This document shows positions 6,283 through 54,523 of a stretch of 64,000 nt of DNA, piece after piece; position 1 is the stretch's first letter, and the number at the start of each line of letters is the position of its first letter. A program made the position numbers and the translations under genes. The stretch comes from a virus (lineage: Duplodnaviria > Caudoviricetes): the IMG/VR virus record IMGVR_UViG_3300042691_038938. One strand, 5' to 3'. The notes under the pieces are model-generated. The model was not told where the DNA came from. It made no database searches and saw only the letters and a program-made list of their open reading frames with translations.

Positions 6283-7155
6283 ATGATAATCTATCAATCA
6301 AGAGGATTTGCAGAAGTATATGAGGAAGCTCTTTACGATCTAATCAAGCATCCTGAGTATACTACTCAACCTAGAGACATGAAGATCAAGGAGAACTGTG
6401 ACGTTGCTCTAGTAATTGAGGATCCTCTCTCTTGTCTATACACAAATCCAGAAAGGTCTTCCCAATCTAAATACATCGCTGCCGAGCTCCTATGGTATTT
6501 TATGGGCAGAAATGATGTTGAGTACATCTCAAAGTTTGCCAAGTTTTGGGAATCGATCAAAAACGATGATGATACTGTAAACTCATCGTATGGAAACCTT
6601 CTCTTTACTAACAAGAATGAGCATGGGTTAACTCAATATCAATGGGCATTAGAATCATTAGTTAAGGACAAGGATTCACGACAAGCGATCCTGCACTTTA
6701 ACTTGCCTATCCATCAGAGATACGGTAATAAGGATTTTGTTTGCACAGTATATGGGATCTTTCAGATTAGGAACAATAAGCTAAACTTTACCGTTCACAT
6801 GCGCAGCAATGACGTGATCTTAGGTCTTCCGACTGATGTTGCTTTCTTTGCGACTCTGCAGAGTCAGATGTTAAAACATCTAAGACACGAAGGTGGATAT
6901 ACTAATTTAGAGTTAGGCATATACACTCACATCGCGAACTCATTCCACGTTTACGAGAGACACTTTGATCTTGTTGAGCGAATGATCAAGCATAAGTTTG
7001 AGCCGGACTCAATTCCAAAAGTTGAGTGTAACTTAATTAAAACAGATGGCGCTCCGACATCAGCATTCAGTTACCTGTTTGATGTACAGGACAGGATCGT
7101 TGCAGCAACCGGCGATGACCTATTTGATTGGATCCTAACTAATTTGAACTCATGA
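6283..7155 (+). CDS. thymidylate-synthase-fold enzyme, probably dCMP hydroxymethylase-like (gp42-like)
   Basis: DFVCT catalytic Cys, MRSNDVILGLPTD with Asp at the Asn177-equivalent position, HVYERHF; these match T4 gp42 motifs as I recall them (DFMCT, MRSNDVVFGFRND, HVYSRHF). Confidence 0.75.
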   Translation: MIIYQSRGFAEVYEEALYDLIKHPEYTTQPRDMKIKENCDVALVIEDPLSCLYTNPERSSQSKYIAAELLWYFMGRNDVEYISKFAKFWESIKNDDDTVNSSYGNLLFTNKNEHGLTQYQWALESLVKDKDSRQAILHFNLPIHQRYGNKDFVCTVYGIFQIRNNKLNFTVHMRSNDVILGLPTDVAFFATLQSQMLKHLRHEGGYTNLELGIYTHIANSFHVYERHFDLVERMIKHKFEPDSIPKVECNLIKTDGAPTSAFSYLFDVQDRIVAATGDDLFDWILTNLNS

Positions 7156-8935: not shown

Positions 8936-8951
8936 CCTCAATCTTAATTTT

Positions 8952-9530: not shown

Positions 9531-9545
9531 TTCGTAATGATTATT

Positions 9546-15042: not shown

Positions 15043-15837
15043 ATGCCAGAATTAGCAGAGATAAAGATAATGGCGGACTACATCAATAAAGTCTGTCAGG
15101 AGAAGGATTTTACGAGCATCTCTTTCTCGGAGAGCGCACAGAGTAGAAAGTTAGGAATCACTCAACCCACTGACCTACAGATATTTAGGATTTCAGCTGA
15201 GTCTAGGGGCAAGGAGCTCATGCTCAGTCTCATTCAAGGAGGCGAAGTCTTTATGAAGATCTCCTTCTCAATGGGAATGTCGGGTCACTGGAGAGAGGTT
15301 CCTCCAGGATTTGAGCCTCCTAAGCACACGCATCTCCTATTTAATTACATAGGATTCGGATCCTTGTGCCTAGTTGACGTACGTCGATTCGCCAGATGGA
15401 AAGTAGTTGAAGACTGGTCCCAAAACCGTGGGCCCTGTCCAGTACACGATTTTACTGAGTTCAAGCACAACATCCTAGGAAACTTAGAGAAGCGAGAGTT
15501 TAATAAACCAATCCATCTTGTGCTCATGAATCAAAAGTATTTTAATGGAATAGGAAACTATCTCCGAGCCGAGATCCTCTTTCACGCCGATCAGGACCCT
15601 TTCATGGACGCTCGTACCGCTCTCTCAACAAATCCCGCAATCATTGAGCTTTGCGAAAGGCTTCCTAAAGAAGCATACGTTCTTGGAGGAGGTCAGCTAA
15701 AGGACTGGGAAAACCCATTTGAGGCCCCAGCTGGAGGATTTAATGAGTGGATGCAATGCTACGGTCGATCCAACCATATTGTGGACAAGAACGGTCGAAC
15801 CTTATGGTATCATGATTCCCAAGTCAAAACCAGTTAG
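15043..15837 (+). CDS. Fpg/Nei-family DNA glycosylase, NEIL1-like
   Basis: N-terminal PE catalytic motif, RGKEL, GMSG, H2TH motif QKYFNGIGNYLRAEIL, no zinc-finger cysteines, C-terminal DKNGRTLWY. Confidence 0.9.
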   Translation: MPELAEIKIMADYINKVCQEKDFTSISFSESAQSRKLGITQPTDLQIFRISAESRGKELMLSLIQGGEVFMKISFSMGMSGHWREVPPGFEPPKHTHLLFNYIGFGSLCLVDVRRFARWKVVEDWSQNRGPCPVHDFTEFKHNILGNLEKREFNKPIHLVLMNQKYFNGIGNYLRAEILFHADQDPFMDARTALSTNPAIIELCERLPKEAYVLGGGQLKDWENPFEAPAGGFNEWMQCYGRSNHIVDKNGRTLWYHDSQVKTS

Positions 15838-16048: not shown

Positions 16049-17643
16049 TGAGTGAAATCACACTGGGCTTTGAGCCTCGCCCACAACAGGTTCAGATCCT
16101 GGACTTTGTGAAAGAATCCATCAAGGATAAGAAAAAATTCATCATGATTGACGCTCCCACTGGAGTAGGCAAGTCATATGCGGCCATCATGATCGCGGAC
16201 TGGTACCGAAAGGAAATCACCAAAAAGGCCAAGGTAGACATAGTCACAAATACTAAGATCTTACAGGATCAGTATATTAAAGACTTTGAGTTTGCTGCAA
16301 ACCTAAAGGGTAAGAACAATTATTGGTGTCGTCGTCAGGGTATGGGCTGCGGAGATGCACAGATCATAAATAAAGCAAACGAGAACAAGTGCGAGCCCTG
16401 TCCACACAGGATGGCCCAGTCCAAGTTTCTACGCAGCCCCTTGAGTCTCACTAACTTTCACCTCATCACTACCTACTCGATGTACTCGCCTGAGATGATG
16501 ATCCAACGCAAGTCTAGGTTACTCATAATCGACGAGGCACACGCCTTTGAGGAGACCTATTGTGACTTCATCTCTTCAGTCTATTCTGAACGTAGCATCA
16601 GGTTACTAGACGTCTGGAGAGACTGGATGGAAAAGGACTTAGATGGAATCACCTCTCTCAACGAGCTTTCAGAGTGGACTAGAACAGTCCTGGTTCCATT
16701 ACTCGCACAGAAGGCTGAAGAGTTACTAAGCGAGGCTAAGGAAACTCGAATAAAGAAGAAAAAGATAGACTTGATCAAGAAAGCCGACCATGTCGACAAG
16801 TCGATGTGTAAGTATAACAGGTTCGTCAATGATAAGGAAAACTACAAGACTAACTGGACTTTTGAAAAGGACTTAGATCAGCATGGCAAGACTAGAATCT
16901 TAGTCGAACCTATCTGGGGAAACATCTACCTAAAGGACATGTTTTGGAACCAGTACGATCATGTGATATTCATGTCAGGTACGCTACTTGATAGGGAACT
17001 TATCTCATTCATCATGGGAGTCAATGAAGAAGAATCATCTTACATGGCTCTTCCATGTCCGTTCAAGGCTGAGAAGAGACCTGTGATCTACTTAAAATTC
17101 GGCAAGATGTCCTATTACCATAAGAAAGAGACCTTTGCTAGAGCAGTGCCGGTGATCTCTAGGATACTTGAGAAAAACCATGAGGTAAAGGGAATCATCC
17201 ACACTGCAAACTACGAGTTTAGTAACTGGATCAAGGCCTCAATCAAGGACAAACGACTCATATTTCACGACTCGGCCACTAGAGAGAAGTCATTAGAGAA
17301 TCACCTTACTTCCAAGTTAGAGACTGTCCTAGTCTCTCCGTCAATGATAAATGGAGTCGACTTGAAGGATGAACTCTCCCGTTTTCAGGTGATCCTAAAG
17401 GTTCCCTTTCCTAACCTAGTGAGCACCAAGATCAAGAAGAGGCTTGAATCCAAGCCAGAATGGTACAATTGGAAGACTCTAGTCGACCTCTTACAGGCAT
17501 ATGGTAGATCAATTAGAAACGACGAGGACTGGGCAGAAACGTTCATCTTAGACGAATGCTTCGATCAGGTGTTAAATAATAAAACGGTGCCCAAATATTT
17601 TTTAGAGGCACTAAAAATTAAAAAGCTAGGAAACAAGGCATGA
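16048..17643 (+). CDS. DinG/Rad3-family SF2 helicase
   Basis: Q motif PRPQQ, DAPTGVGKS, Cys cluster, DEAH, SGT, SPSMINGVDL, QAYGRSIR. Confidence 0.9.
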   Translation: MSEITLGFEPRPQQVQILDFVKESIKDKKKFIMIDAPTGVGKSYAAIMIADWYRKEITKKAKVDIVTNTKILQDQYIKDFEFAANLKGKNNYWCRRQGMGCGDAQIINKANENKCEPCPHRMAQSKFLRSPLSLTNFHLITTYSMYSPEMMIQRKSRLLIIDEAHAFEETYCDFISSVYSERSIRLLDVWRDWMEKDLDGITSLNELSEWTRTVLVPLLAQKAEELLSEAKETRIKKKKIDLIKKADHVDKSMCKYNRFVNDKENYKTNWTFEKDLDQHGKTRILVEPIWGNIYLKDMFWNQYDHVIFMSGTLLDRELISFIMGVNEEESSYMALPCPFKAEKRPVIYLKFGKMSYYHKKETFARAVPVISRILEKNHEVKGIIHTANYEFSNWIKASIKDKRLIFHDSATREKSLENHLTSKLETVLVSPSMINGVDLKDELSRFQVILKVPFPNLVSTKIKKRLESKPEWYNWKTLVDLLQAYGRSIRNDEDWAETFILDECFDQVLNNKTVPKYFLEALKIKKLGNKA

Positions 17644-18815
17644 AATACTTAAGAATAAGTTATCCACAGCTTAGAACAGAGGTCTTGTCTGGGCTTACTA
17701 TCTCAACTGCGCTGGTTCCTGAAGCAATCTCATTTGCTCTACTCATTGGAGTGTCTCCAACTGCTGGTATATGGGCAGCCTTCTTCATGGCATTATCCAC
17801 TTCCCTTTTTGGAGGCAGGCCTGCCATAATAAGCGGTGCGACTGGCGCGACTGCAGTCATACTAGCGGCCCTTGTTTCTCTTCATGGAGAAGATAATCTA
17901 TACCTTGCTGTGATTTTAGCTGGAGTGATCCAGTTAATCTTGTGGATTAGCGGAGGTTGGAAAGTATTCAAGACGGTTCCTAAGATCGTAATTTCCGGAT
18001 TCCTAATTTCACTATCGATACTAATACTTCAAAGTCAATTCAAGTATTTTAAGATAGGTGGACTTTCGAGTATCCAACAGGTAATAATGGTAGGGATAGT
18101 TGTAGTATCAGCCGGCTCAATGTATGTTTCCAGTAAAAGATTCAAATTTCCTCCAGCAATCGCCGCAATATTGATGGGATCAGTTCTTAGTTCTTTCTTT
18201 GCTCTTCCTCTAATACAGGATCTTTCTGCTATATCAAATCGTTTACCTGAATTAGTCACTCCATCAGTTTCATTAGAGTCTTTATTACTAGTCTTGCCGT
18301 ATTCATTAGGTATGGCAATTTCCGGTCTTACTGAATCTCTAATCGCAGTAGATGAAGTCTGTCATAAACTAGGAACCCCAAAGGGAAAAGATCCAAAGTC
18401 TAAAGAAACCTTTGCTCAAGGCATAGGTAATATAGTGAGCGGCTTTTTTACTTCAATTGGAGGCTGTGTCCTCGTAGGTCAGACTAATTTAAACGTCGCA
18501 GCTGGCGCAAAATATCGAGTATCATCCCTAATTGCGAGCCTAGGTCTCTTATTGATCATACTCATTTTTGGAAAGTATATTCAGCTAATTCCTTTAGCTG
18601 GACTCATAGGAGTAATGATAATTGTAGTCTATGAAACTGGCGATTGGTCAAAACTTAAGGATAAAAATAGAGTAAATATAGCAACTCTTATCGTGACGAT
18701 AGCCGCTTCGCTAATCACTCACAATCTTGCGGTAGGAGTCTTGTTTGGAAGTATCACATACTACGCAATAAAAAAGTTAGTAAAGAATAATGGCAAAGAA
18801 AAAGATCGAGGATAA
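17640..18815 (+). CDS. SulP/SLC26-family anion (sulfate) permease lacking a STAS domain
   Basis: LSGLTISTALVPEAISFA, GGRPAIISGATGA, ETFAQGIGNIVSGFF, GGCVLVGQT; many hydrophobic segments. Confidence 0.88.
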   Translation: MKYLRISYPQLRTEVLSGLTISTALVPEAISFALLIGVSPTAGIWAAFFMALSTSLFGGRPAIISGATGATAVILAALVSLHGEDNLYLAVILAGVIQLILWISGGWKVFKTVPKIVISGFLISLSILILQSQFKYFKIGGLSSIQQVIMVGIVVVSAGSMYVSSKRFKFPPAIAAILMGSVLSSFFALPLIQDLSAISNRLPELVTPSVSLESLLLVLPYSLGMAISGLTESLIAVDEVCHKLGTPKGKDPKSKETFAQGIGNIVSGFFTSIGGCVLVGQTNLNVAAGAKYRVSSLIASLGLLLIILIFGKYIQLIPLAGLIGVMIIVVYETGDWSKLKDKNRVNIATLIVTIAASLITHNLAVGVLFGSITYYAIKKLVKNNGKEKDRG

Positions 18816-24643: not shown

Positions 24644-24658
24644 CTTGTGAGTTTTTAT

Positions 24659-29461: not shown

Positions 29462-29489
29462 AAACCTAGTGTTCTCTATATTGTATAAC
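29462..29489 (+). promoter_or_regulatory. putative promoter AAACCT-N16-TATAAC driving the glycan cluster
   Basis: Two-box motif 18 nt upstream of ATG 29508. Confidence 0.5.
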
Positions 29490-29507: not shown

Positions 29508-30122
29508 ATGTCTCTAATTAAGACGTTAAAGGAATTCGCTGGCATACATACTGGAAAAAAGATAATAGTTTGCGGCTGCGGAGTCTCGCTAGTAGATTTT
29601 AAGGAACATCACCAAGATTTCATAACGATTGGGGTGAATGACGTTAGTGAGCTATTCGATCCCACATATCTACTAGTCACTGATCATTCAGGAAGGTTCA
29701 GCTCTGATAGGAGACGAAGAGTTCACGGAACCAATGCAAAATACGTGTTTACTTGTGCTAAGGGTTGGTATCACAAAAACCTAGTCCATTTTGAATTAGG
29801 AAGCAGGTCCCTTACTAACCTTGACCATCCTGATAGAATAGATCATTACATGAATTCTCCGTATGCTGCTGCGATCCTTGCCTACAAGATGGGAGCGAAG
29901 AATATCGGCCTGATTGGAGTCGATTTTACAGATGGCCATTTCTATAATCTAAAGGACGGTAAACATCCTATAGTGAAATCAAACTACCTTAACAAAGTGA
30001 ATTCAGCCTATCAGACTCTTAGCAGCGAGCTTGCTAAGAGAGGCACAACGCTAGTCAACCTAAGTCCAATCAGCAACCTCGCAATACGAAAAATAAGCTT
30101 GGAGGAGTTTAAAAAGATATGA
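29508..30122 (+). CDS. MptE/Maf (DUF115)-like protein, candidate nonulosonate transferase
   Basis: IIVCGCGVSL, TIGVN, AAILAYKMGAKNIGLIGVDF, LVNLS; typical DUF115 pattern (IiG.GpSL...LaY.MG.k.I.LiG.D). Confidence 0.65.
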   Translation: MSLIKTLKEFAGIHTGKKIIVCGCGVSLVDFKEHHQDFITIGVNDVSELFDPTYLLVTDHSGRFSSDRRRRVHGTNAKYVFTCAKGWYHKNLVHFELGSRSLTNLDHPDRIDHYMNSPYAAAILAYKMGAKNIGLIGVDFTDGHFYNLKDGKHPIVKSNYLNKVNSAYQTLSSELAKRGTTLVNLSPISNLAIRKISLEEFKKI

Positions 30123-30748
30123 AGATAATAATACCCGCTCGAATGGGATCCAAGGGTCTTCCATTTAAGAATAGAACGTTGTTTAAGTACACGGCAGAAT
30201 CGATTCCTAATGAATTAAGAGGAGACACATTCGTCACGACGGACGATTCAGATATCATGATAATGGCTAGAGCTCATGGTTTCAATGTCATCGACCGACC
30301 CTTTTGCCTTGCTCAAGATACAACTTCCACTAAAGATGTCTTGATCCATGCACTGGGTGAAATTAATCCCGATCCTTACGAGGATGTCATTGTTCTCTAT
30401 CTTACTTATCCTCAGCGTTCCTGGAAAGACGTTAAGTCTGCTATGGAGTACGCCGATTCACTAGATTTCAGCGTTAACTCTCTACTCTGTAAAAAGGAAT
30501 GCCCGAGCCCATACTTGATGATGTTTGAGAAGGGACCATTTGGTACCCAAGTCATCCCACACGACCTATATCGACGCCAAGACTATCCTTCCTGTTTTGA
30601 GATAAGTCACTTTGTCATAATCTTTAAGGCGCATTACATAAATAACTTAAATAGTAATCTGTATTCTGAAACTACTGTTTTCTATGGAATAGACGATGTA
30701 GTTGACGTTGACTTACAGAGAGACCTAAATCAATTTTATGAAAATTAA
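30119..30748 (+). CDS. acylneuraminate/nonulosonate cytidylyltransferase (NeuA-like)
   Basis: IIIPARMGSKGLPFKN, VTTDD, IDRP..LAQD, LYLTYPQR, DVD. Confidence 0.9.
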   Translation: MKIIIPARMGSKGLPFKNRTLFKYTAESIPNELRGDTFVTTDDSDIMIMARAHGFNVIDRPFCLAQDTTSTKDVLIHALGEINPDPYEDVIVLYLTYPQRSWKDVKSAMEYADSLDFSVNSLLCKKECPSPYLMMFEKGPFGTQVIPHDLYRRQDYPSCFEISHFVIIFKAHYINNLNSNLYSETTVFYGIDDVVDVDLQRDLNQFYEN

Positions 30749-32447
30749 CTTAGCAATAGACTGTCTAGAAGGATATGAATTTAATGCTATTACCTCAATA
30801 CATTCATTCCTGAATACTAACAAATGGTTTGATGGTAAGATATACATAATAGTGCCCAAGCATTCTGTGATTACTTCTAGAATCTCTTCGGAAATTCTAT
30901 CAATCTATGAGAATTTTGAGATAGTCAATGCTCAAGAAGATTTGAATTTTTCAAATGAATTAAGTAAAGCCTCTTCTGACTTAACAAAGATTCAAACTAT
31001 TCTTTCAATCAAAAGCCTTTACATTAAAGAGGAACGTGTCCTATTCATTTCAAGTGGGTGTCTCATCTTCAAGGACTTGAGTAAATTACTAGGCACCAAC
31101 GAAGTAACGCTGATTAGCAATCCATCAGCAGAAATAGACTTTTCTGTATTCTATCGAAATAAGATAGCTAATTCTTCTCTATCAATCTCTCAATTACTCA
31201 ATCAGGTTTTTACTGATCGTAATTCAATACTTTCCCTGTTTCAAACTAACCAAAAGATCACAACTGTTTTGGGAGAAACTTCTTCTAGTTTTAATGATAG
31301 GGTCTTTCTAAAGAAGAAATCAGTCTTAAATCTTCTTAATTTCATTAAATATGACACATTAAGAGGAGAATCTAGGAACTATTCTAAGATAAACTATATT
31401 TGGATTCAGCATCAAAAGGTAGTCAAAAACATCCTAAAAAGACCGGCATCCTTCAAAGGAAAGAGGACTTTAAATAAAAGTCTCTCCCCTAAACTTGATG
31501 GACTACTTAATTCTCCACAGGCTCAGCCAACTCAAAATAAGAACATCCAGTCGGCCACAAAGGAAGTAAATCTAAATAAGGCGAGAAGTCTCTTAAGAGT
31601 CAGGGAAACGGATAAGAGATACTTACTTAATGAGAAGAAAAAAGCAGAGAGTCTTTCTCAATATCATGAAACTGTCTCACAATATTCTGAGACTCCTCCT
31701 CGACACGATTATGCTACTGCTTGTGTGATAGCATTTTTAGATCGGCATGAGATGGTTGAACTTAATGTCAAGCTTCTAAGCCAACAAAGTTTGGTACCTG
31801 CGATAGTCCTAGTTGCTTCAAATCCAACAGATGCTGCATTTGCTAATGGGTTAATTGAAAGATATCCTAACGTGTTCGTCACCTACTATCAAAATTATCC
31901 AATAGGCGGAAAGTGGAGAGCCGGGGTAAAGTATGCACAGCGTCTGAACGTTAGAGGACTGATGATACTCGGATCAGATGATCTACTATCACTAGATTAC
32001 TTTAAGAAGTGTTACTCAATGATTGATCGCGGTAACGGATCGAGCGGGACTGGCGTGGACCTGGTCGGCAATCGTAGCTGGTTTATATACGATACCTCAC
32101 GGAAGCTCTACAATCTTTCTTACTTGCCTAGCGTGAAAATATTTTTAGGCGGAGGAAAGATGTTCTCTAAGAACTTTTTAGATGCAGTTGACTGGGAGAT
32201 ATTTAAACCACTACGACCAGTTCACCTGGACGAGTATGGATATGAATTGATTGAAGCATTTAGTAATTCAATGTCTCTAATATCTCAAGATAATTTTATT
32301 TTAAGTATAAAAGGAAGCTGGGAAGTCATTAATTCAACTGATGCTATACTTAAAGCTAGGAATCGAATAAGAGTAATTGATGTTACGACACGGCTCTCTA
32401 CAATACTCAATAATCTTAAAATAGATCGTAAAGAAATTGAAATATGA
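30738..32447 (+). CDS. two-domain glycosyltransferase-like protein
   Basis: N-terminal GT8-like start (A.TSIHSFL..N); C-terminal GT-A region with GGKWRAG and ILGSDDLL. Confidence 0.6.
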   Translation: MKINLAIDCLEGYEFNAITSIHSFLNTNKWFDGKIYIIVPKHSVITSRISSEILSIYENFEIVNAQEDLNFSNELSKASSDLTKIQTILSIKSLYIKEERVLFISSGCLIFKDLSKLLGTNEVTLISNPSAEIDFSVFYRNKIANSSLSISQLLNQVFTDRNSILSLFQTNQKITTVLGETSSSFNDRVFLKKKSVLNLLNFIKYDTLRGESRNYSKINYIWIQHQKVVKNILKRPASFKGKRTLNKSLSPKLDGLLNSPQAQPTQNKNIQSATKEVNLNKARSLLRVRETDKRYLLNEKKKAESLSQYHETVSQYSETPPRHDYATACVIAFLDRHEMVELNVKLLSQQSLVPAIVLVASNPTDAAFANGLIERYPNVFVTYYQNYPIGGKWRAGVKYAQRLNVRGLMILGSDDLLSLDYFKKCYSMIDRGNGSSGTGVDLVGNRSWFIYDTSRKLYNLSYLPSVKIFLGGGKMFSKNFLDAVDWEIFKPLRPVHLDEYGYELIEAFSNSMSLISQDNFILSIKGSWEVINSTDAILKARNRIRVIDVTTRLSTILNNLKIDRKEIEI

Positions 32448-33349
32448 TAACTTTAAGAAACGTAATAGCGTACCTATCTGAAAAAATGGATCTTGAAATA
32501 ATTTATGGAAATGTTGGTGAAGATCAATCGATCTCTAAAATAATAAAATTTGATCCGGCAAACCTGGACAATTCAATTCTTTTTTGGATAAGTGAAAAGA
32601 ACCTTCCACAGACAAGGGATCTTGTTACTGGGACTTTGATAGCTCCACGATCAATCGCTCGTCCTAATAATTTTAATGGAACTCTATTGATTTGTGAAAA
32701 TCCTAGAAAGGCATTTAGCTTAATAATTAACGAATTCTTCAAGCCTAGCAATAATTTGATTCCAATTGGTTCTTTAGTCACGATCATGTCAAATGTCCCA
32801 AAAAGCTCTAAAGTAGGAAAAGGGACAATTATTGAAAAAGGGGTGACAATCGGTGAAAACGTAGTCATTGGATACAATAATGTCATTCTATCAGGAACAG
32901 TCATTGGAGATAACGTTAAGGTAGGTTCGAACAACACGATAGGAGCGGTCGGCTTTGGTTACGAAAGGGGAGAGAATGGAGAATATGAACTGATTTCTCA
33001 CATAGGAAACGTTGTAATTGAGGATGACGTTGAGATAGGAAACAATAATTGCATTGATAGAGCGGTTCTTGGATCAACCCTTCTCTGTAAAAATTCCAAG
33101 ATAGATAACCTAGTTCATATCGCACATGGAGTAAAGATAGGAAGAAATTCTCTAGTCATCGCAAATTCCATGATTGCTGGAAGCTCTGAGATAGGCGATG
33201 ACGTATGGATCGCGCCCTCAACTTCTGTGATAAACGGTAAAACTGTGGGATCAAGATCGATGACTGGCTTAGGTTCAGTCGTGATTTCAAACGTGGATGA
33301 AGGCTCATTAGTGGTCGGAGTCCCAGCAAAAAAGATAAAAGACATATAA
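32444..33349 (+). CDS. LpxD-like hexapeptide-repeat acyltransferase
   Basis: Left-handed beta-helix repeats; IG.VGFG, HIGNVVIEDDVEIGNNNCIDRA, KIDNLVHIAHG. Confidence 0.85.
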   Translation: MITLRNVIAYLSEKMDLEIIYGNVGEDQSISKIIKFDPANLDNSILFWISEKNLPQTRDLVTGTLIAPRSIARPNNFNGTLLICENPRKAFSLIINEFFKPSNNLIPIGSLVTIMSNVPKSSKVGKGTIIEKGVTIGENVVIGYNNVILSGTVIGDNVKVGSNNTIGAVGFGYERGENGEYELISHIGNVVIEDDVEIGNNNCIDRAVLGSTLLCKNSKIDNLVHIAHGVKIGRNSLVIANSMIAGSSEIGDDVWIAPSTSVINGKTVGSRSMTGLGSVVISNVDEGSLVVGVPAKKIKDI

Positions 33350-35109
33350 TGTGCGGAATAAGCGGAATAATTTTTAAAGAGCATTGCACTGACTTCACTC
33401 AAGCTAGACTCGAATTGGAACACATGAAATCCTCACAGCATCTGAGAGGACCTGATTCTTCTGGTGAGTTTAATGATACTAAAGTATTTTTAGCTCATAA
33501 TAGACTTTCGATACTTGATCTTAGTCCAGCAGGAAATCAGCCCATGCAAAATGAGGATTGGGTGATAGTCTTTAACGGGGAGATCTATAATTATGTGGAA
33601 CTAAGAGACGAGCTCATAGGATTAGGTGAGACCTTTATCGGTTCTTCTGATACTGAGGTTCTCTTGACCTGTATATCTAGGTTTGGAATCCAGGAAGCAC
33701 TACAAAAGATAAACGGTATCTTCTCATTTTGTGCATACAATAAATACACAAAGGAGGTTCATCTAGTTAGGGACAGACTCGGCGAGAAGCCTCTTTTTTA
33801 CTACGTGGATGAGAATTCGACCCTTTACTTTTCATCGAATCCTTCAGCGATAGTGAATTCATTACCTCAAGTAGACTGGCATCTTGATTACGAAGGACTA
33901 TGGGAATATTTTGTCCTCGGAGGAATTTTTTCCGATAAGACTCTATTCAAAGGGATCAATCGACTTGATTCTGCTTCCGTCTTAAGCTATGTTAATAACG
34001 AAATAACTATATCTAAGTATTGGACACCAGTATTTCAGCCTAATTTGACTGATTCTGATCTTGACTCGCTAATCAGAGAAGCGATAACGAGCCGAACAGT
34101 CTCAGACGTCCCAATTGTTCTGTTCTTAAGTGGAGGAGTTGACTCCAGTGCAGTTGCTGCTGTGCTTAAAGACACTGATGCAGTTCACCTGATATCAGAT
34201 GAGGTTGATTCTGCGAGAAAGGTCGCTGAAAAATTCAAAATGAGATTCAAAGTAGTCCAACCGGCGAGTTTAGACATCTCGGAAACGTTATTCAAGTATT
34301 CTGAATTTTCAGGAGAGGCAACGATGGCAGGATTCATTCCTTATGTGACAAGCAAAGCAATTTCTGGTGAATATAAGGTGGCAATAAGCGCGAATGGAGC
34401 AGATGAACTGTTTTTTGGATATCTTAGAATTCCCACACCAAAAATAAAAAATGAATTCTTTGATAAGTTAAGCAAAAGACGAAACATCAACATAAATCGT
34501 CGGTCAAGTCAGCCAGATGGACAGATTGCTGAAATCTTTAGACACCCTGACAATTTTTCTATTCCTCTTTCAGGAAAAGTTAGTTCAATGGCTGATCTAT
34601 TGAGATTGATTGAGCTAGAATTAAAGGATTTCAACCAAAATGAAGACTTTCCACAGTCTTCAAAATACAGATGGCTCGAACTAATGACCTACGTAAAGGG
34701 CGATCTTAATAACACTCTAGATTTTGCAAGCATGGCAAACTCCTTAGAGGTAAGGGCTCCTTTCTTAGATTATCGACTAGTTGAGGCCGCTTTAAGCTTG
34801 GATGAGACTCGACACATTAATATCAAAAATGGAAGAAAACACTTTTTAAAGAAGATCTTAGATTCTGAAGGAGTCGATGAATCGATTTGGAATAGGGATA
34901 AACTGGGATTTAGTCTCATTTCTTCCTATTTCAATAGCATAGAATCGATCAAAGACTTAGCAGTAAAGGAGCTCAAAAGAGAAGGGTTTTTGTCTATTTC
35001 ATGTACTAAAGGTAATTTAGGAAGAGACCTTCAATACTTAAGAAGTTCTGCCTTGGGATTTTTAGCTTGGAAAAAGGCGTGGATCGACAACGGAAAAGTA
35101 AAAAAATAA
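33349..35109 (+). CDS. asparagine synthase (glutamine-hydrolysing)-like amidotransferase
   Basis: MCGI, RGPD, HNRLSILDL, FNGEIYNY, RDRLGEKPL, LSGGVDSS, GADELFFGY, SLEVRAPFLD. Confidence 0.93.
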   Translation: MCGISGIIFKEHCTDFTQARLELEHMKSSQHLRGPDSSGEFNDTKVFLAHNRLSILDLSPAGNQPMQNEDWVIVFNGEIYNYVELRDELIGLGETFIGSSDTEVLLTCISRFGIQEALQKINGIFSFCAYNKYTKEVHLVRDRLGEKPLFYYVDENSTLYFSSNPSAIVNSLPQVDWHLDYEGLWEYFVLGGIFSDKTLFKGINRLDSASVLSYVNNEITISKYWTPVFQPNLTDSDLDSLIREAITSRTVSDVPIVLFLSGGVDSSAVAAVLKDTDAVHLISDEVDSARKVAEKFKMRFKVVQPASLDISETLFKYSEFSGEATMAGFIPYVTSKAISGEYKVAISANGADELFFGYLRIPTPKIKNEFFDKLSKRRNININRRSSQPDGQIAEIFRHPDNFSIPLSGKVSSMADLLRLIELELKDFNQNEDFPQSSKYRWLELMTYVKGDLNNTLDFASMANSLEVRAPFLDYRLVEAALSLDETRHINIKNGRKHFLKKILDSEGVDESIWNRDKLGFSLISSYFNSIESIKDLAVKELKREGFLSISCTKGNLGRDLQYLRSSALGFLAWKKAWIDNGKVKK

Positions 35110-35115
35110 GAATCG

Positions 35116-35739
35116 ATGACAGTATTAATATTATCTCCACACACGGATGATGCTGAGCTCGGTTGCGGAGGAACGATATCGCGTCTCATTGAGGAAGGTC
35201 ACTCAGTATGGGTTGCAATATTCTCAACCTGTGATGAGTCGCTTCCTCCTGGATTTTCTCCAGGGACCTTAAAAACTGAGAGCATAAATTCGTTAGTCTC
35301 ATTGGGTTTAAATAAGGATCAAATCATCCATTATGACTATCAAGTTAGAGTCTTTAACTACAGTAGACAGTCAATATTAGAAGATCTAGTACAGTTAAAG
35401 AAGAAGATGTTGCCTGATCTTGTATTCATTCCTTCACTAGATGATTATCATCAAGATCATAAGACCGTTGCTGAGGAAGGAGTTAGGTGTTTCAAAAACG
35501 GCTGCTCAATCCTTTCTTATGAATTGATATGGAACAACACTGGATTTAAGAATCAGCTTTACTATGTCTTAGAGGAAAGGCATATCAAGAACAAAATAAA
35601 AGCTCTTAAGAATTATGAAACGCAACAAGGAAGATCATATCTCTCTGAAGAATTTATTCGCTCCTTAGCTAAGGTTCGGGGAATACAAAATGGCGTAGAT
35701 CTGGCTGAAGCATATGAAGTCATACGATATAAAATATAA
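35116..35739 (+). CDS. PIG-L/LmbE-family deacetylase
   Basis: SPHTDDAELGCGG and HQDH motifs. Confidence 0.9.
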   Translation: MTVLILSPHTDDAELGCGGTISRLIEEGHSVWVAIFSTCDESLPPGFSPGTLKTESINSLVSLGLNKDQIIHYDYQVRVFNYSRQSILEDLVQLKKKMLPDLVFIPSLDDYHQDHKTVAEEGVRCFKNGCSILSYELIWNNTGFKNQLYYVLEERHIKNKIKALKNYETQQGRSYLSEEFIRSLAKVRGIQNGVDLAEAYEVIRYKI

Positions 35740-35748
35740 TACATACAA

Positions 35749-36495
35749 ATGCAATCATTATCTAAATTTACCAATTCACCTATTATTATTGGAGGCTGTG
35801 GCAGATCTGGAACAACTCTTCTTGCTGCAATTCTTTCATCTCATCCAAGTATCTATTCATATACTTACGAAACTATGGCATTCTGTCCCAGTGCATGGAT
35901 GGATCCCTTAAATAGAAACGTTCCATTTAGTCTTTCCATTCTAGAGGAAGTACTCATTGACTCTCCTCCAAGTAAAGAGAACAATAGATTTTTAGAAAAG
36001 ACCCCTAGAAATACCCTTGTCTATAAAAGAATAGCCGACTATTTTAATGATCAAGTTAAGATCATAAATCTTGTAAGAGACGGTCGAGATGTTGTTCTAT
36101 CGAAGTATCCAGGAAAGGAAGACACACAATACGTAACTGCTGACTTTTGGAAAACTGAAATTGAGTATGGGATTGAGTGTGAAGATTTTCCATGGTTTAA
36201 AACATTTAGATATGAAGATTTAATTCTTAATTTTAAGGAAACTCTTCTCGATATCTGTGAATTTTGTGAGATTGAATACTGTGATCAATTGACTAACTAC
36301 ACTGACTTTACAAAATATAAAGAATCTGATGCTTGGAGCCATCGTAAAATTCAAAGCCCTCATCAAAAGTCAATTGGAAAATGGAAGAATCACATGGATC
36401 ATATTGAAGTAAAAAAGTTGAATTCAGACCCACACAATATTGATTTATTAAAAAAATATAACTATGAAATTATTAGTGATTGTTCCAGCATATAA
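35749..36495 (+). CDS. sulfotransferase (PAPS-dependent, Sulfotransfer_3-like)
   Basis: GCGRSGTTLL 5'-PSB loop, EKTP, VRDGRDV 3'-PB motif, RYEDL. Confidence 0.88.
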   Translation: MQSLSKFTNSPIIIGGCGRSGTTLLAAILSSHPSIYSYTYETMAFCPSAWMDPLNRNVPFSLSILEEVLIDSPPSKENNRFLEKTPRNTLVYKRIADYFNDQVKIINLVRDGRDVVLSKYPGKEDTQYVTADFWKTEIEYGIECEDFPWFKTFRYEDLILNFKETLLDICEFCEIEYCDQLTNYTDFTKYKESDAWSHRKIQSPHQKSIGKWKNHMDHIEVKKLNSDPHNIDLLKKYNYEIISDCSSI

Positions 36496-37150
36496 CGCTC
36501 AGTCTTTTATAAAGGAGAGTATTTCTTCGATATTATCGCAAAATATTTTAATTCAAGTTGTTGTGATAGACGACGGATCAATCGATAAAACAGTTTCTCA
36601 AATTCCTAAAAATTCAAACATCAATGTGATACGAAACCTCAAAAACATGGGAACGTATTATTCAATTAATCGAGCTCTAGTTTCCTCAGCTTCCGATCCT
36701 TCATGGACCCACTTTACCGTTCATGGAGCAGACGATGTTTCCCTTCCTGGAAGATTTAAAGCACAGCTTTCTAAATTTTCAAACGGAATCTTAGCAGTCG
36801 GCTGTGGTTACAATAGAGTTGACCACTCAACTGGGAAAGTAATGAGTACTACCTTGAAGACTGATGAATCAGTTCTAATTTTTTCAAGAAAGGTTTTTGA
36901 ATCCATTGGATACTATGCGACTCACAGAGTAGGAAGCGATACTGAATACAAGAAGCGCCTCTTACTATGTCATCCAAAATCCATTTCGACAGTTCCTAGG
37001 GTACTAATAAAATCCTATTTACATGGAGAAAACTTGACTAAAAAAATACCGCTCGGTGGATCAGTTAGAAAGAAGGTAGTAGAGTCATTTACCTCGAGTC
37101 ACAGAGAAATGGTTAAAACTAAAAATTATTATCAGAAATTCAATCCATGA
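36464..37150 (+). CDS. glycosyltransferase family 2
   Basis: VIVPAYN, VIDDGSID, NMGTYYSIN, GADD, SDTEY. Confidence 0.88.
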   Translation: MKLLVIVPAYNAQSFIKESISSILSQNILIQVVVIDDGSIDKTVSQIPKNSNINVIRNLKNMGTYYSINRALVSSASDPSWTHFTVHGADDVSLPGRFKAQLSKFSNGILAVGCGYNRVDHSTGKVMSTTLKTDESVLIFSRKVFESIGYYATHRVGSDTEYKKRLLLCHPKSISTVPRVLIKSYLHGENLTKKIPLGGSVRKKVVESFTSSHREMVKTKNYYQKFNP

Positions 37151-37974
37151 AATTAGGAGTAGCATACATAGTGTTCGACGGGATAGAGCTTCTTGAACAT
37201 TCAATAAGACAGATACGCCCTCACGTTGATCACATCAACGTGATCTATCAAAATCATTCATGGTTTGGCACTCCCATCTCAAAGGAAGATTTAATCAAGC
37301 TCAAGTCTCTAACGTCGGCTCGACTTATAGATGAGCTCACACTATTTAACGACTTTTCTCCCATTCGAGTCAAGAATCATCAGGGAATAATGAAGGCAAA
37401 GGGATACGAGCGAACCAAGCGACAGTTGGGTCTAAGTATCACTCTTAATCGTGGGTGCACTCATTATCTTTGCATGGACGTTGATGAATTCTACAAGTCA
37501 GAAGAATTTGCTAAGGCTAAGTCTGAGATAATCAGCAAAGGATATGACCAGACCGCCGTTAGACTCATCAATTACGTCAACGTTCCTATCGTTCATCGAG
37601 GATATGATTCCATCAGGGTTCCTTTCATCTGTAGGATAGACCGTTCGACTAAGATGACTCCTTCATTCTTCGTTAAGTGTGATCCTACTAGGGGACTTAC
37701 TAGCGCAAGTAAGAATAAACATGAATTCGCTCCAAGCATTATCACAATGCATCACATGGAAACAGTAAGAAAGAATCTGACCCTAAAGTATGACTCTACC
37801 ACTCGAGCAGTATTTGCTCGCGCTAGAACTTCTGAGCTAGTTGATAGTATTAAGAATGTAAACGAGAAAAGTTCTAATTTCAGTTTTAAGAAGATAATAT
37901 TTCCTGGACTGAATTCGATAAAACTGATTCAGTGTGAGAACATATTTAATATACCTTATCAAAAATGGAAATAA
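37147..37974 (+). CDS. GT-A fold glycosyltransferase-like protein
   Basis: LGVAYIVFDG start, CMDVDEFY DxD motif, MHHM. Confidence 0.65.
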   Translation: MKLGVAYIVFDGIELLEHSIRQIRPHVDHINVIYQNHSWFGTPISKEDLIKLKSLTSARLIDELTLFNDFSPIRVKNHQGIMKAKGYERTKRQLGLSITLNRGCTHYLCMDVDEFYKSEEFAKAKSEIISKGYDQTAVRLINYVNVPIVHRGYDSIRVPFICRIDRSTKMTPSFFVKCDPTRGLTSASKNKHEFAPSIITMHHMETVRKNLTLKYDSTTRAVFARARTSELVDSIKNVNEKSSNFSFKKIIFPGLNSIKLIQCENIFNIPYQKWK

Positions 37975-37983
37975 TTTTAAGAA

Positions 37984-38667
37984 ATGTCTAAAATAGCTTT
38001 GGAATTTACAACAACTGCCTGTAATCGGCCTTCAGTATTAAACGCAACATATGCATCATATTGTAAGAATCTTACAGGCATAGACTTTTCAAAAAGCACA
38101 GTATATTTGAATGTTGATCCTGCGCCTGATTCTAAAAATATTCAAATGGTAGAGGAAGTTGCAAGGAAATATTTCGGCACAGTTATTGTTAATTATTCAT
38201 CTTCTCCTAATTTTGCAGCAGCGGCTCTTTGGTGTTTTTCTCAAGTAAAGGGTGAATTTTTTTTTCATTTGGAAGACGATTGGAAACTTATGAAGGCTAT
38301 TAACATCCATTCGATGATCTCAAAACTAGGAACATCTAATTTACAGTGTGTATTAAATAAGGGAAGGACTTCAATTACAATAAAGGAGACTGGTGAACCA
38401 TGTTTTGTTCCTTCTCTAATCGCAACGCAATATTGGAAAAAATATCTAACTAACTTTAGACTTGATATTAATCCTGAATATCAAATGAAAGTTCTTTTTA
38501 AAAATAAGTCGACTGGTTTATTTAAAAATCGCTCAATTTATTATAATCCGGCTCAAGAGCTTTCAAAAGATATTGGTCGATCATGGTTAATGGCAAATAA
38601 ACTAGCTAGAAGTTATACTCCGGGAGCAAAATGGTCTCCTTGGATAAAATGGAGAAATAAAAAATGA
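37984..38667 (+). CDS. GT-A fold glycosyltransferase-like protein
   Basis: TTACNRP, LNVD, FFHLEDDW motif. Confidence 0.65.
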   Translation: MSKIALEFTTTACNRPSVLNATYASYCKNLTGIDFSKSTVYLNVDPAPDSKNIQMVEEVARKYFGTVIVNYSSSPNFAAAALWCFSQVKGEFFFHLEDDWKLMKAINIHSMISKLGTSNLQCVLNKGRTSITIKETGEPCFVPSLIATQYWKKYLTNFRLDINPEYQMKVLFKNKSTGLFKNRSIYYNPAQELSKDIGRSWLMANKLARSYTPGAKWSPWIKWRNKK

Positions 38668-39548
38668 AAACACTAATCATTGCTGAGATCGGAATTAATT
38701 ATGCATATGGTGAGTCTCAATCTCTCTTTATGGATAATATAAAGAGACTTATCGACGTAGCGAAAGTTTCTGGTGTAGATTACGTTAAGTTTCAAAAACG
38801 CAATCCTGAATCTTGCGTTCCTCAAAATGAGAGAGATAAACCTAAAAGGGTTCCTTGGAGAAAAGAAGAGACTACCTATCTGCATTATAAAAAAGACATT
38901 GAGCTTTGGCAAAAGGAATTTGATGAGATCGACGATTACTGTCGAGAAAAGGAGATAGGCTGGTTCGCGTCAGTCTGGGACAAGGATTCAGTGGATTTCA
39001 TGAGAAGATACACAAGTCCTTTACCGAACGGCAAGTGGGGAATCATGCTTAAGATACCATCTGCGTTAATCACGGATCTTAGCCTAGTACAATACGCTAA
39101 AGAGTGTTCAGATTTTCTTCTCATCTCTACTGGCATGAGCAGGCAGAGTGAGATCGATCTTGCTATCGAGACAGGCGAGCCAGATGTAGTGTTCCATACA
39201 AATTCAACCTACCCTTCTCCAGTATCAGAGCTAAAATTAGATTACATACCATATCTCAATCACATCTCAATTGAATTTAAGAAGAAGTTTGAAGTAGGGT
39301 ATTCCGGTCATGAGTTTGGGCTAAACACCACTCTTGCTGCTAATCTTTTGGGCGCAAGGTGGATTGAACGACACATAACATTAGACCGAACTCACTGGGG
39401 TAGCGATCAGATGGCCTCAGTTGAACCGCAAGGCTTGATTAAATTGGTAAAGAGCATTAGAGACATTGAGCTCTCCAGGGGAGGATATGGCGCTAGAGAA
39501 GTCCTAGCCTCAGAAAAAGAAAAAAGAAAAACACTTAGAGGAAAATGA
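38664..39548 (+). CDS. N-acylneuraminate/nonulosonate synthase (NeuB-like, no antifreeze-like domain)
   Basis: IIAEIGIN, VKFQKR, KIPSA, ISTGMS, HTNSTYP, GYSGHE, ERHITLDR, GSDQ.AS.EP. Confidence 0.92.
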   Translation: MKTLIIAEIGINYAYGESQSLFMDNIKRLIDVAKVSGVDYVKFQKRNPESCVPQNERDKPKRVPWRKEETTYLHYKKDIELWQKEFDEIDDYCREKEIGWFASVWDKDSVDFMRRYTSPLPNGKWGIMLKIPSALITDLSLVQYAKECSDFLLISTGMSRQSEIDLAIETGEPDVVFHTNSTYPSPVSELKLDYIPYLNHISIEFKKKFEVGYSGHEFGLNTTLAANLLGARWIERHITLDRTHWGSDQMASVEPQGLIKLVKSIRDIELSRGGYGAREVLASEKEKRKTLRGK

Positions 39549-39844
39549 AGATAACTCCAAAAAAGATCCTTCAGTTCTTTGAAGGCAACATCAAGATGTT
39601 GGGAGACATGTTTTATCTCCTACCTGAACATGAAAAAGAACAAGTATTCTTTAGATCTCAGATCTGTAAGGAAGAGTGTGTGAAGCTAGGATATTGCGTT
39701 TACTGCGGTTGCGACGTCCCGGGAAAGCTGTATGTAAAAGAGTCTTGTAATGGAGGAGAAAGATTTCCTGATCTCATGTCAAAGAAGGACTGGGAAGAGT
39801 ATAAAAAGGAAAATAACATTGAGGTAAATGATCTATTACATTGA
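39545..39844 (+). CDS. small Cys-rich protein
   Basis: C-x3-C...CVYCGC...C; inside the glycan operon. Confidence 0.65.
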   Translation: MKITPKKILQFFEGNIKMLGDMFYLLPEHEKEQVFFRSQICKEECVKLGYCVYCGCDVPGKLYVKESCNGGERFPDLMSKKDWEEYKKENNIEVNDLLH

Positions 39845-40127
39845 CATTGACGACACGATATGTACTCTATCTGAGTCCATGAACTATGGATCAGCTACAC
39901 CCATTCCAAAAGCCATTGAGAAGGTGAATCGTCTCTATGAAGAAGGCCATCGCATCGTCTTCTGGACTGCTAGAGGGACTGTTAGTGGCAAGGATTGGAG
40001 ACAGTTAACTGAGAGTCAACTCATCTCTTGGGAAGTAAAATATCATGAGCTCAAATTCGGTAAACCTGCATACGATTTCTTCATAGACGATAAAAACATC
40101 AATTCGAATGATTGGCTCAGCAAGTAA
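39828..40127 (+). CDS. minimal HAD phosphatase
   Basis: DIDDTI motif I, WTARG motif II, GKP..D.FIDDK motifs III/IV. Confidence 0.88.
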   Translation: MIYYIDIDDTICTLSESMNYGSATPIPKAIEKVNRLYEEGHRIVFWTARGTVSGKDWRQLTESQLISWEVKYHELKFGKPAYDFFIDDKNINSNDWLSK

Positions 40128-40719
40128 CGTAAAGGTACTTGTCCTAGGCAACGATCCTCAGATCAACACCATTGATTTTGACAGATTGAAGCCTGAAGTG
40201 ATCACACTGGGCGTGAATAGGATCTGGTTGAAACACATACCTGACTATCTTTTTTTCAATGATATTCAGATCTTGACTGAGATTGAAAGACATCCTGAAA
40301 TAATGGCTCAACTTCAATCTAATACTAAGTGTTTTTCTAGTGATTGGATTAGGCATAAATTAAAAAGAACCATTCCTCAATGGATAGAAATACACCGACG
40401 AACCAACGCGATCTCTTTTCCAGACTCTGTAAGTACTGCAATAAATATCTTTTCATCTAATTTTTTAACTGATAAGCGGGTGACTTATTACCTTGCTGGA
40501 GTTTCCCTAAAATGGACTAATCCTAGTCACTTTTGGAAGGAGATGGAATACGAATCATTGAATAAACACGGTCAAGATTGGTACACCACGCGATTTGTTA
40601 AAATGTCGGAAAACTTTAGAAAGATAAAGGCCAGAGGAATACGCGTAATCTCAGTGAATCCCAACTCCAATCTAAATAAGATGTTTCGTTATGAGAGCAT
40701 TGATAACCTTTATAAGTGA
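40108..40719 (+). CDS. second MptE/Maf (DUF115)-like protein
   Basis: VLVLGNDPQI, TLGVNRI, YYLAGVSL, VISVNPNS. Confidence 0.55.
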   Translation: MIGSASNVKVLVLGNDPQINTIDFDRLKPEVITLGVNRIWLKHIPDYLFFNDIQILTEIERHPEIMAQLQSNTKCFSSDWIRHKLKRTIPQWIEIHRRTNAISFPDSVSTAINIFSSNFLTDKRVTYYLAGVSLKWTNPSHFWKEMEYESLNKHGQDWYTTRFVKMSENFRKIKARGIRVISVNPNSNLNKMFRYESIDNLYK

Positions 40720-54515: not shown

Positions 54516-54523
54516 GATAAATA
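54516..54523 (+). promoter_or_regulatory. late promoter-like GATAAATA
   Basis: Upstream of ATG 54546. Confidence 0.6.

Follow-up and report, generated by a model that had tools for sequence, protein, structure and literature searches.

A 64,000-nucleotide stretch of the tailed phage record IMGVR_UViG_3300042691_038938 (Duplodnaviria; Caudoviricetes), hereafter the window, carries at positions 29508 to 40719 a block of sugar-related genes that an earlier note, made from the letters alone, had taken for a candidate virion glycosylation system. We found that this block is a self-contained, clade-conserved phage island for glycan assembly, in which the genes at the two ends are conserved and those in the middle are exchanged among relatives. 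The claim that a complete set of activation, transfer and tailoring enzymes is present in a tailed phage was supported. In the literature searched, no description was found of such an island in a tailed phage, that is, of a tailed-phage lineage making its own cytidine monophosphate (CMP)-nonulosonate and having, at one constant position among its structural genes, a recombining island of glycan genes that is O-antigen-like, nor of nonulosonate-modified DNA.

Island architecture and conservation

Proteins were assigned by profile searches against Pfam, NCBIfam, PHROG and PDB, by AlphaFold models compared with Foldseek, by ESM Atlas features and structures and by hhalign; for o01, o03, o09, o10 and o14 of the open reading frames (ORFs) o01 to o14 the assignment came from structure-level evidence. 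Relatives were collected from IMG/VR and from metagenome contigs, all of them uncultured, and the clade discussed here comprises those with 56-85% identity in NeuB and 57-74% in the major capsid protein (MCP). The 14 co-oriented, mostly overlapping ORFs of the earlier note were all present and intact on the + strand, from 29469/29508 to 40719, with junctions mostly overlapping or of 0-10 nt. Gene calls on public contigs were the same as the window ORFs, and o01 starts at the ATG at 29508. The GC content of the island (0.36-0.38) was close to that of the remaining window (0.37-0.45). Family profile and structure searches run for each ORF showed the gene inventory of the note to be correct, and its flanks were as stated, with DnaJ, the prohead protease (phrog_207) and the MCP (phrog_138) on one side and the gp5-like hub (phrog_430) on the other.

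A search with NeuB recovered more than 93 IMG/VR contigs with relatives. Gene-neighbourhood comparison showed that more than 40 related contigs have the island at this site, their proteins being 45-90% identical, and that within the clade it always lies between DnaJ/protease/MCP and the gp5 baseplate operon. Every island of the clade starts with o01-o02 and ends with NeuB-(o12)-HAD-o14, often with o09 just before, and from 1 to 13 or more genes lie between these conserved ends. The shuffled middle yielded a pool of 218 proteins in 73 clusters (about 38 cassettes), among them DegT aminotransferases, UDP-glucose dehydrogenases, GT2 enzymes, WbqC, methyltransferases and acetyltransferases. It was clear that this content is out of step with the phage phylogeny: L035, the closest relative by its flanks (71-87% identity), has only o09 of the middle genes in common with the window, whereas the more distant L002, L003, L005 and L011 have o03-o06, o08 and o09 in common with it, and L111 carries the module of LpxD-like, AsnB, PIG-L and GT2 genes with the same gene order around the sulfotransferase. 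The slot of the sulfotransferase (o07) holds an S-adenosylmethionine methyltransferase-like gene in relatives, and the protein in this slot of L002 matched methyltransferases at 9e-7. Whichever acceptor is served, conserved ends with a variable middle are the mark of a molecular surface under diversifying selection. In the freshwater run X9, which holds a 95-99% identical variant, contigs spanned the island except for 35010-36611, at low coverage; this gap takes in the end of the PIG-L gene, the sulfotransferase gene and the start of the GT2 gene, and may reflect a strain with a different slot gene.

We also considered whether the block could be a recently captured fragment of a host capsule or lipopolysaccharide (LPS) locus, inactive or decaying, as the single enzymes do come from bacterial polysaccharide families. 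This origin was rejected. All 14 frames are intact and coupled, the GC content is near that of the window, the site is the same in more than 40 relatives, and identical copies were present in several runs with separate sample and study codes. Furthermore, no bacterial organism name appeared in the best 120 of the 650 metagenomic relatives of the o01 family, and cellular homologs of the sulfotransferase were at most 43% identical, its 69-98% relatives being confined to small metagenome contigs. The low cellular identity, the o01 relatives without bacterial names and the identical copies thus exclude a recent, decaying host capture, which we regard as extremely improbable; an island ancestral to the phage clade and under selection is supported instead. 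The combination of NeuB, small HAD, cytidylyltransferase and o01/o14 serves as a search handle, with which more than 90 contigs of IMG/VR and 650 proteins of the o01 family were retrieved.

Island enzymes and the proposed glycan pathway

The two conserved ends of the island are formed by remote paralogs (hhalign 92%, E 6e-7). At the 5′ end, o01 (29508..30122, +; isoelectric point (pI) 9.6) is a predicted GT42/Maf/MptE-fold transferase and a candidate nonulosonate transferase; at the 3′ end, o14 (40108..40719, +) is a basic protein predicted to be a transferase of the GT42 (Cst-I/Cst-II) fold. For the AlphaFold2 model of o01 (predicted local distance difference test score (pLDDT) 88), the best structural match by Foldseek was Maf, the flagellin nonulosonate transferase (5mu5, 3.6e-4), with Cst-II at 4.7e-4, and the model of o14 (pLDDT 94) matched Cst-II at 1.4e-5 and Cst-I at 3.9e-5, with template modelling (TM) scores of 0.46-0.55. 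Taken together, the two models matched Maf 5mu5, the GT42 enzymes Cst-II/Cst-I and the kinase MptE with Foldseek E values of 1e-5 to 4e-4 and TM scores of about 0.5. No significant Pfam match was obtained for either protein, and o01, o14 and o09 used as profile queries had no match among PDB sequences; o01 matched the sialyltransferase family phrog_4603 at 1.7e-5. The earlier note calls the two proteins Maf/DUF115-like; the PF01973 (Maf/DUF115) score of o01 was 17.2, below the cut-off of 34.6. The alignment of o01 with Maf (about 205 aa against 632 aa) covers the core alone, giving a target-normalised TM score of 0.21. Orthologs of o01 were 47-64% identical among relatives, and 37 orthologs of o14 were found.

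The conserved ends also hold the enzymes of sugar activation. o11 (38664..39548, +) is a short synthase of the NeuB family, for a nonulosonate or a nonulosonate-9-phosphate, that lacks a SAF domain; PF03102 matched it at full length, with 185.2 bits against a cut-off of 22.1, over residues 29-273 of 294 and profile positions 1-237 of 241. No domain other than NeuB was found in the protein, whose last residue is 294, and PDB 6ncs matched at 2.8e-18. Its scores against the equivalogs TIGR03569 (161.8 against 399.65) and TIGR03586, PseI (119.3 against 340.25), lie below the cut-offs for Neu5Ac synthase and PseI, and the identity of the sugar is thus not fixed to either. o02 (30119..30748, +) is a probable CMP-sugar cytidylyltransferase of the NeuA/PseF/KdsB type, with a PF02348 (CTP_transf_3) match of 26 bits against a cut-off of 22.6 limited to residues 3-81, the N-terminal half, and a PseF match (TIGR03584, 1.7e-10) of 40.9, below the cut-off of 205.7. 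o13 (39828..40127, +), of 99 aa, is a minimal HAD sugar-phosphate phosphatase (DxDxT; phrog_1238, 5e-28) that falls with the NCBIfam EcbF-BcbF (capsule biosynthesis phosphatase) and BT0820 families and matches PDB 9iqw (2.9e-10), 2obb and 1xpj. Between NeuB and HAD lies o12 (39545..39844, +; phrog_13610), a clade-specific core protein of 99 aa whose alignment revealed six invariant cysteines (C41 x3 C45 x5 C51 x2 C54 x C56 x11 C68) and which may bind a metal or an Fe-S cluster. Outside the clade, a cytidylyltransferase neighbours NeuB in 41 of 43 loci and a small HAD in 33 of the 43.

As a first step in the pathway that we propose, NeuB, the small HAD and the cytidylyltransferase would make a CMP-activated nonulosonic acid from host phosphoenolpyruvate, cytidine triphosphate and a phosphorylated mannose-type sugar. 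A NeuC-type epimerase and the upstream enzymes of pseudaminic/legionaminic acid (Pse/Leg) synthesis are absent from the window and a phosphatase travels with NeuB, so that the simplest product would be ketodeoxynonulosonic acid (Kdn) or a Neu-type sugar made via a 9-phosphate. That the phosphatase is so tightly coupled likewise suggests that the substrate is phosphorylated and the intermediate a 9-phosphate; such a route leads to Kdn in Bacteroides and to Neu5Ac in animals.

The middle of the island adds transferases and tailoring enzymes. o03 (30738..32447, +) is a basic two-domain glycosyltransferase (GT), GT8-like in its N-terminal and GT2-like in its C-terminal part by ESM Atlas features and structure; it gave no Pfam match and has orthologs in L002 and L003 at 37-40% identity. 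o04 (32444..33349, +) is an LpxD-like N-acyltransferase with an LpxD-type N-terminal domain (Hexapep, 73.5 bits), scoring 211.4 against the 207 of the LpxD subfamily NF002060 and 180.7 against the 242.5 of the equivalog TIGR01853. It is followed by o05 (33349..35109, +), an AsnB-type glutamine-dependent amidotransferase with GATase_6/7 and Asn_synthase domains (TIGR01536, 324.9 against a cut-off of 267.1) and the N-terminus MCGI, by o06 (35116..35739, +), a PIG-L/LmbE-type de-N-acetylase (PF02585, 62.4 bits), and by o07 (35749..36495, +), a sulfotransferase of the 3′-phosphoadenosine-5′-phosphosulfate (PAPS) type (PF13469 and PF00685). o06 and o07, and also the GT2 enzyme o08, scored higher than the Pfam cut-offs. 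Three further transferases complete the set: o08 (36464..37150, +), a basic GT2 enzyme (PF00535, 62.1 bits); o09 (37147..37974, +), a GT-A-fold enzyme of a large phage-specific family, which occurs in many members of the clade and bears a DxD-like MDVDEF motif; and o10 (37984..38667, +), a basic GT-A-fold enzyme with GT2-type neighbours by Atlas structure and features. The Atlas structure of o09 gave TM scores of 0.87-0.89 to viral clusters, with GT2 and GT17 neighbours, and its 19 orthologs aligned with a mean column identity of 70%.

The island proteins fall into two groups by charge, six transferases with a pI of 9.4-9.8, a value kept across orthologs, and seven precursor-level enzymes with a pI of 5.0-6.6. 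This split suggests that tailoring takes place on soluble precursors and assembly on a polyanionic partner. In the second step, then, the acidic enzymes would tailor soluble precursors: PIG-L would strip an N-acetyl group and the LpxD-like enzyme re-acylate the amine, while AsnB would amidate a carboxylate and the sulfotransferase add sulfate derived from PAPS. In the third, the six strongly basic transferases would build the oligosaccharide, with the GT42/Maf-fold o01 and o14 placing the nonulosonate first, as Maf does on flagellin, and the variable enzymes extending it. Since these two enzymes remain the same for any content of the middle, their acceptor is probably constant as well. On family membership and synteny, we consider the steps up to the assembled glycan highly probable.

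Candidate acceptors and genomic setting

Sequence cannot decide whether the acceptor is a virion protein, modified DNA or the host surface, and an acceptor of some other kind is improbable. Virion proteins and modified DNA, the two acceptors named in the earlier note, are still the two leading candidates. We tentatively favour virion proteins: in a fourth step, the glycan would be placed on fibre and/or capsid proteins assembled in the cytoplasm and give the particle a lineage-specific surface glycan. Consistent with such an acceptor, the island keeps a fixed site within the morphogenesis module of relatives whose MCPs are 57-74% identical, o01 resembles Maf, and o01 and o14 stay constant while the middle varies. 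Sulfate and carboxylate groups would also suit a surface glycan better than packaged DNA. Glycosylation of mycobacteriophage capsid and tail-tube proteins provides a precedent (Freeman et al. 2023, as cited in PMC12619734).

The genome designated G001, a member of the clade, adds to this side. It carries a second operon with APS (adenosine 5′-phosphosulfate) kinase and sulfotransferase genes (L142:13603-16385, −), which converges on two fibre-like proteins of 638 and 463 aa (L142:9938-13252, equal to contig positions 177937-181251). These proteins contain 25-27% Ser+Thr, with repeats of roughly 14 residues (NNTASGxxSTVGGG) like those of YadA-head/Hep_Hag proteins and many N-x-T/S sequons. In the window, a SulP sulfate permease without a STAS domain (17640..18815, +; PF00916, 127 bits; 391 aa, about nine hydrophobic segments) lies in the replication operon, between a helicase gene and the topoisomerase II genes, and a pattern search gave no IMG/VR relative of it. 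It possibly supplies sulfate for the island sulfotransferase. With this permease in the window and a second sulfation operon in G001, the phage appears to invest in sulfate supply.

The export question was followed by a hydropathy scan. No Wzx-, Wzy-, WecA- or WbaP-type polytopic membrane protein was found among the 218 cassette proteins, one small one of which has four transmembrane segments, and the cassette proteins of the window all have fewer than two; the island thus does not have the makeup of a Wzx/Wzy- or ABC-dependent O-antigen or capsule locus. The statement that the window lacks export and priming genes held for the cassette; elsewhere the window does encode a protein with nine transmembrane segments, namely the SulP permease, which is not a glycan exporter. 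The step from missing export genes to a cytoplasmic acceptor did not hold, since host exporters could carry the glycan on a lipid A-core, as in lipooligosaccharide (LOS), or on host-primed undecaprenyl carriers.

Several observations weigh against virion proteins. No Ser/Thr-rich tail was seen on the MCP or the other structural proteins of the window and no acceptor protein was identified there, and the large fibre-like ORFs on the upstream contigs, followed to about 42.6 kb before the window, were not unusually Ser/Thr-rich. Before the island there is an upstream element of its own, and the GATAAATAATAAAAA motif found ahead of the protease gene and of tail and baseplate genes is absent. The pI of the transferases suits a protein no better than it does a polyanionic partner such as DNA or membrane. 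An enzyme of the dCMP hydroxymethylase type is encoded in the clade, and a DNA-modification operon of the distant phage G003 contains homologs of o01, NeuB, HAD and the cytidylyltransferase. Moreover, DNA-glycosylation clusters are also reported to neighbour structural genes (bioRxiv 10.1101/2023.12.21.572611), which makes the position of the island weak evidence for a virion acceptor.

The DNA alternative of the earlier note stood as a candidate and had been underrated, given the hydroxymethylase-type enzyme and the G003 operon. Under this alternative, which we judge somewhat unlikely, dC would be converted to 5-hydroxymethyl-dC, the basic island transferases would add a nonulosonate-containing glycan after replication, and the variable middle would reflect an arms race with modification-dependent and classical restriction systems, an explanation with which the hypervariability agrees. 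A thymidylate synthase (TS) homolog of the dCMP hydroxymethylase type is encoded at 6283..7155 (+), with a dCMP deaminase nearby at 7357-7776. Its PDB matches placed it closer to CMP/dCMP hydroxymethylases (MilA 6e-20, T4 gp42 3e-19) than to ThyA (1e-12). By the signature criteria of PMC13326640 it has the gp42 motifs DFVCT (Asp three residues before the catalytic Cys), MRSND and GLPTD (Asp at T4 D179), and the signature recurred in the homologs of five clade contigs, G003 and G029. Judged from these residues, the phage DNA probably contains 5-hydroxymethylcytosine (5hmC), and an association with the island would make it a possible glycan acceptor; no T4-type DNA glycosyltransferase was found near the hydroxymethylase.

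The operon of G003 (IMGVR_UViG_3300035208_004923, 425 kb; L064:4343-13720) is tight and starts with HAD_2, a C5 DNA methylase, a cytidylyltransferase::RgpF fusion, GT2 and GT25, then continues with NeuB (about 50% identical to the window NeuB), HAD, the o01-like transferase, a dNMP-kinase-like protein, the gp42-type TS homolog and MazG. We regard it as a candidate pathway for a nonulosonate-containing DNA modification; in L108 a related DNA-modification frame occurs without NeuB. The logic is shared by the arabinosylation clusters of PMC13326640, which combine a 1xpj-like small HAD, a nucleotidyltransferase, glycosyltransferases, a TS homolog and a kinase, and o13 matches 1xpj, 2obb and 9iqw. 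Small phage-specific GT-A enzymes are the commonest DNA glycosyltransferases in the work of Pyle et al. (bioRxiv 10.1101/2023.12.21.572611), and the strongly basic island transferases would suit a DNA substrate.

On the other hand, seven transferase domains with N-acyl, amide and sulfate tailoring exceed the known DNA glycans, which reach at most a trisaccharide (PMC13326640; bioRxiv 10.1101/2023.12.21.572611). Packaging would suffer if every C carried an anionic nonulosonate and sulfate. Of the features of a DNA-glycosylation cluster, the synthase signature is present in the window, but the hydroxymethylase lies 22 kb from the island, the two being clustered in the distant G003. In a survey of TS homologs adjoining phage nonulosonate (NulO) genes, that of G003 was the sole hydroxymethylase-type case, those of L132 and L134 being canonical ThyA. 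Four of the six near-complete non-clade NulO phages (G002, G018, G031 and G039) had no TS homolog and, in a search made without a positive control, no Tet/JBP match, so that some non-DNA acceptor of this sugar must exist in phages. To our knowledge, no GT42-fold enzyme acts on DNA. That the island, or at least its G003 homolog, attaches a sialic-acid-like nonulosonate glycan to 5hmC is a possibility that we consider unlikely. Were such "sialylated" DNA real, enzymes of the GT42/Maf fold would glycosylate DNA, and by swapping the tailoring module the phages would vary the product against restriction; a DNA acceptor would mean a new hypermodification class, a new activity of the GT42/Maf fold and an enzyme source for DNA glyco-engineering. 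A DNA glycosylase of the Fpg/Nei type (Fapy_DNA_glyco, H2TH and Neil1 DNA-binding domains) is encoded at 15043-15837 (+) of this phage, which probably has modified cytosine.

Remodelling of the host envelope was weighed as a third possibility. Here lipid A-core or a polyprenol carrier primed by the host would serve the enzymes as substrate on the inner side of the membrane, host MsbA/Lpt or O-glycosylation machinery would export the product, and the benefit would be superinfection exclusion or a smaller loss of progeny on debris. An LpxD-like enzyme is typical of LOS/LPS biosynthesis, as are GT8-, GT25-, GT2- and GT42-like folds, the basic transferases resemble peripheral-membrane proteins, and the layout of conserved flanks and variable centre mirrors bacterial O-antigen and capsule loci. 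LOS-type assembly requires no dedicated flippase. In addition, GT29 sialyltransferases, GDP-mannose dehydratases and DegT enzymes accompany the NulO triad, beside PhoH, in many unrelated aquatic phage contigs outside the clade. In opposition to this, the roughly 38 diverse cassettes lack Wzx, Wzy, an ABC transporter, a ligase and a priming transferase, unlike O-antigen and capsule loci; for a lytic phage, which has little time to act, giving up about 5% of a genome of roughly 213 kb is a heavy cost; the site within the morphogenesis module is fixed; and o01 and o14 are conserved while the presumed underlying glycan varies. We therefore hold this reading to be rather unlikely. If the favoured virion acceptor is correct, these would be freshwater jumbo phages with lineage-specific, sialic-acid-like and sometimes sulfated coats, with a bearing on adsorption, attachment to particles and mucus, grazing and decay.

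Upstream of the island, in the divergent DnaJ/o01 intergenic region, a ATATTGTATAA motif (29478..29488, +) is located about 20 nt before the o01 ATG and is a candidate promoter or operator of the cassette. Its core TATTGTATAA or a close variant was found upstream of o01 in 11 relatives and has a single occurrence in the window. It is unlike GATAAATAATAAAAA, which precedes many other genes and resembles the T4 late promoter TATAAATA: 13 GATAAATAATAAAAA sites were found in the window against 0.74 expected, 8-30 nt upstream of start codons (for example at 24652, 28405, 47037, 49043, 53294 and 58897 on the − strand and at 54516 and 61564 on the + strand). A second class of upstream motif, (T-rich)AGTATAAT/C, precedes other window genes. 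The Bacteroidota −7 motif TAnnTTTG was not enriched in the window (45 sites against 63 expected), and a scan of the window for sigma-70 promoters and terminators gave results at or below shuffle level. At the other end of the island, the stop codon of o14 (+) adjoins, at 40719/40720 and with zero spacer, that of the gene closing the baseplate operon (195 aa, −), and no terminator-like hairpin was found at this junction.

The window is a portion of a large myophage with a T4-like MCP (phrog_138), the phrog_207 prohead protease, a J-domain protein and the gp5-like hub. Its MCP is 36% identical to that of a 462-kb uncultured phage and about 31% identical to those of Lak megaphages; the gene order of LR756500, the nearest MCP in GenBank (36% identity), differs from that of the window. 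A nucleotide search of GenBank phages with the window DNA gave no match, and its NeuB and o01 were found in no cultured phage. The DNA is recurrent in freshwater and lake metagenomes, its holders among the matches listed spanning 18 studies, and in three runs with separate sample filings the copies of the island were identical. The longest contig holding the o01 protein measures 213 kb. In the DNA lying about 4.6 to 26.5 kb upstream of the window (L088/L090), this phage encodes GroES (Cpn10), GroEL (Cpn60) and an Hc1 histone-like protein (PF07432), and these contigs also carry UvdE, ribonucleotide reductase and a B-family polymerase. In having DnaJ and Hc1, in coming from an aquatic habitat and in showing no RNA polymerase gene in the DNA examined, the phage matches the "moraphages" of PMC12619734, whose core genome contains four unexplained glycosyltransferase orthogroups and for which that paper mentions neither sialic acid nor NeuB. 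The host plausibly belongs to the Bacteroidota. The tail tube gene (phrog_45; 8952-9530, −) and two unannotated neighbours (8168-10667, −) come directly after nucleotide-metabolism genes, so the structural genes of the window are scattered over several blocks.

Comparison with known systems

Flagellin glycosylation islands combine a NeuB-family synthase, CMP-activation and a Maf/DUF115 transferase that acts on a cytoplasmic protein, together with Pse/Leg genes, and are hypervariable with conserved core genes. The phage island is like them in its NeuB-type synthase, CMP-activation, Maf-fold transferases and variable content around a conserved core; it differs in having neither the Pse/Leg upstream enzymes nor flagellin, and o01 and o14 correspond to the catalytic core only of Maf (5mu5; about 205 against 632 aa), without its flanking acceptor-binding domains. 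In the LOS sialylation of Campylobacter and Neisseria (NeuBCA with the GT42 enzymes Cst-I/Cst-II; 1ro7, 2p2v), the acceptor is assembled on the inner face of the membrane and no dedicated flippase takes part. GT42-fold transferases, NeuB and a CMP-synthetase are common to both, whereas the phage island has an HAD phosphatase and no NeuC, shows 13-17% identity to Cst and lies in a morphogenesis module.

The Kdn-9-phosphate route of Bacteroides thetaiotaomicron and the NANS/NANP/CMAS route of animals consist of a synthase, an HAD phosphatase and a cytidylyltransferase, with no epimerase. The phage triad has the same three enzymes and no epimerase; its phosphatase differs in being of the minimal BT0820/EcbF type, assigned without any KdsC-type match. 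Giant viruses make rare sugars and glycosylate their own virions, as on Mimivirus fibrils and the chlorovirus MCP, with clusters that differ between clades; these, however, are viruses of eukaryotes and use other sugars (viosamine, bacillosamine, rhamnose).

Virion glycosylation has been described for mycobacteriophages and giant viruses, and DNA glycosylation for T-even phages and newer glycosyltransferase clusters. The mycobacteriophage systems (Freeman et al. 2023, cited in PMC12619734) resemble the island in placing phage GTs beside capsid and tail genes, in the proposed cytoplasmic acceptor and in the surface coat. They differ in using one to a few GTs and host nucleotide sugars with no nonulosonate pathway or tailoring enzymes, and their acceptors are Ser/Thr-rich C-terminal extensions of capsid and tail-tube proteins, of a kind not found on the structural proteins of the window. 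Phage DNA glycosylation (T4 gp42 with alpha/beta-GT; arabinosyl-5-hydroxycytosine (5hoC) in RB69/DLP3, PMC13326640; Pyle et al.) is like the present case in its hydroxymethylase-type TS homolog, in the small HAD, nucleotidyltransferase and LPS-related GTs of its clusters and in their high diversity, with the NulO genes of G003 lying inside such an operon. The known products are neutral mono- to trisaccharides made from UDP-sugars, whereas the present system would draw on a CMP-nonulosonate and on seven transferase domains, with tailoring by acyl, amide and sulfate groups.

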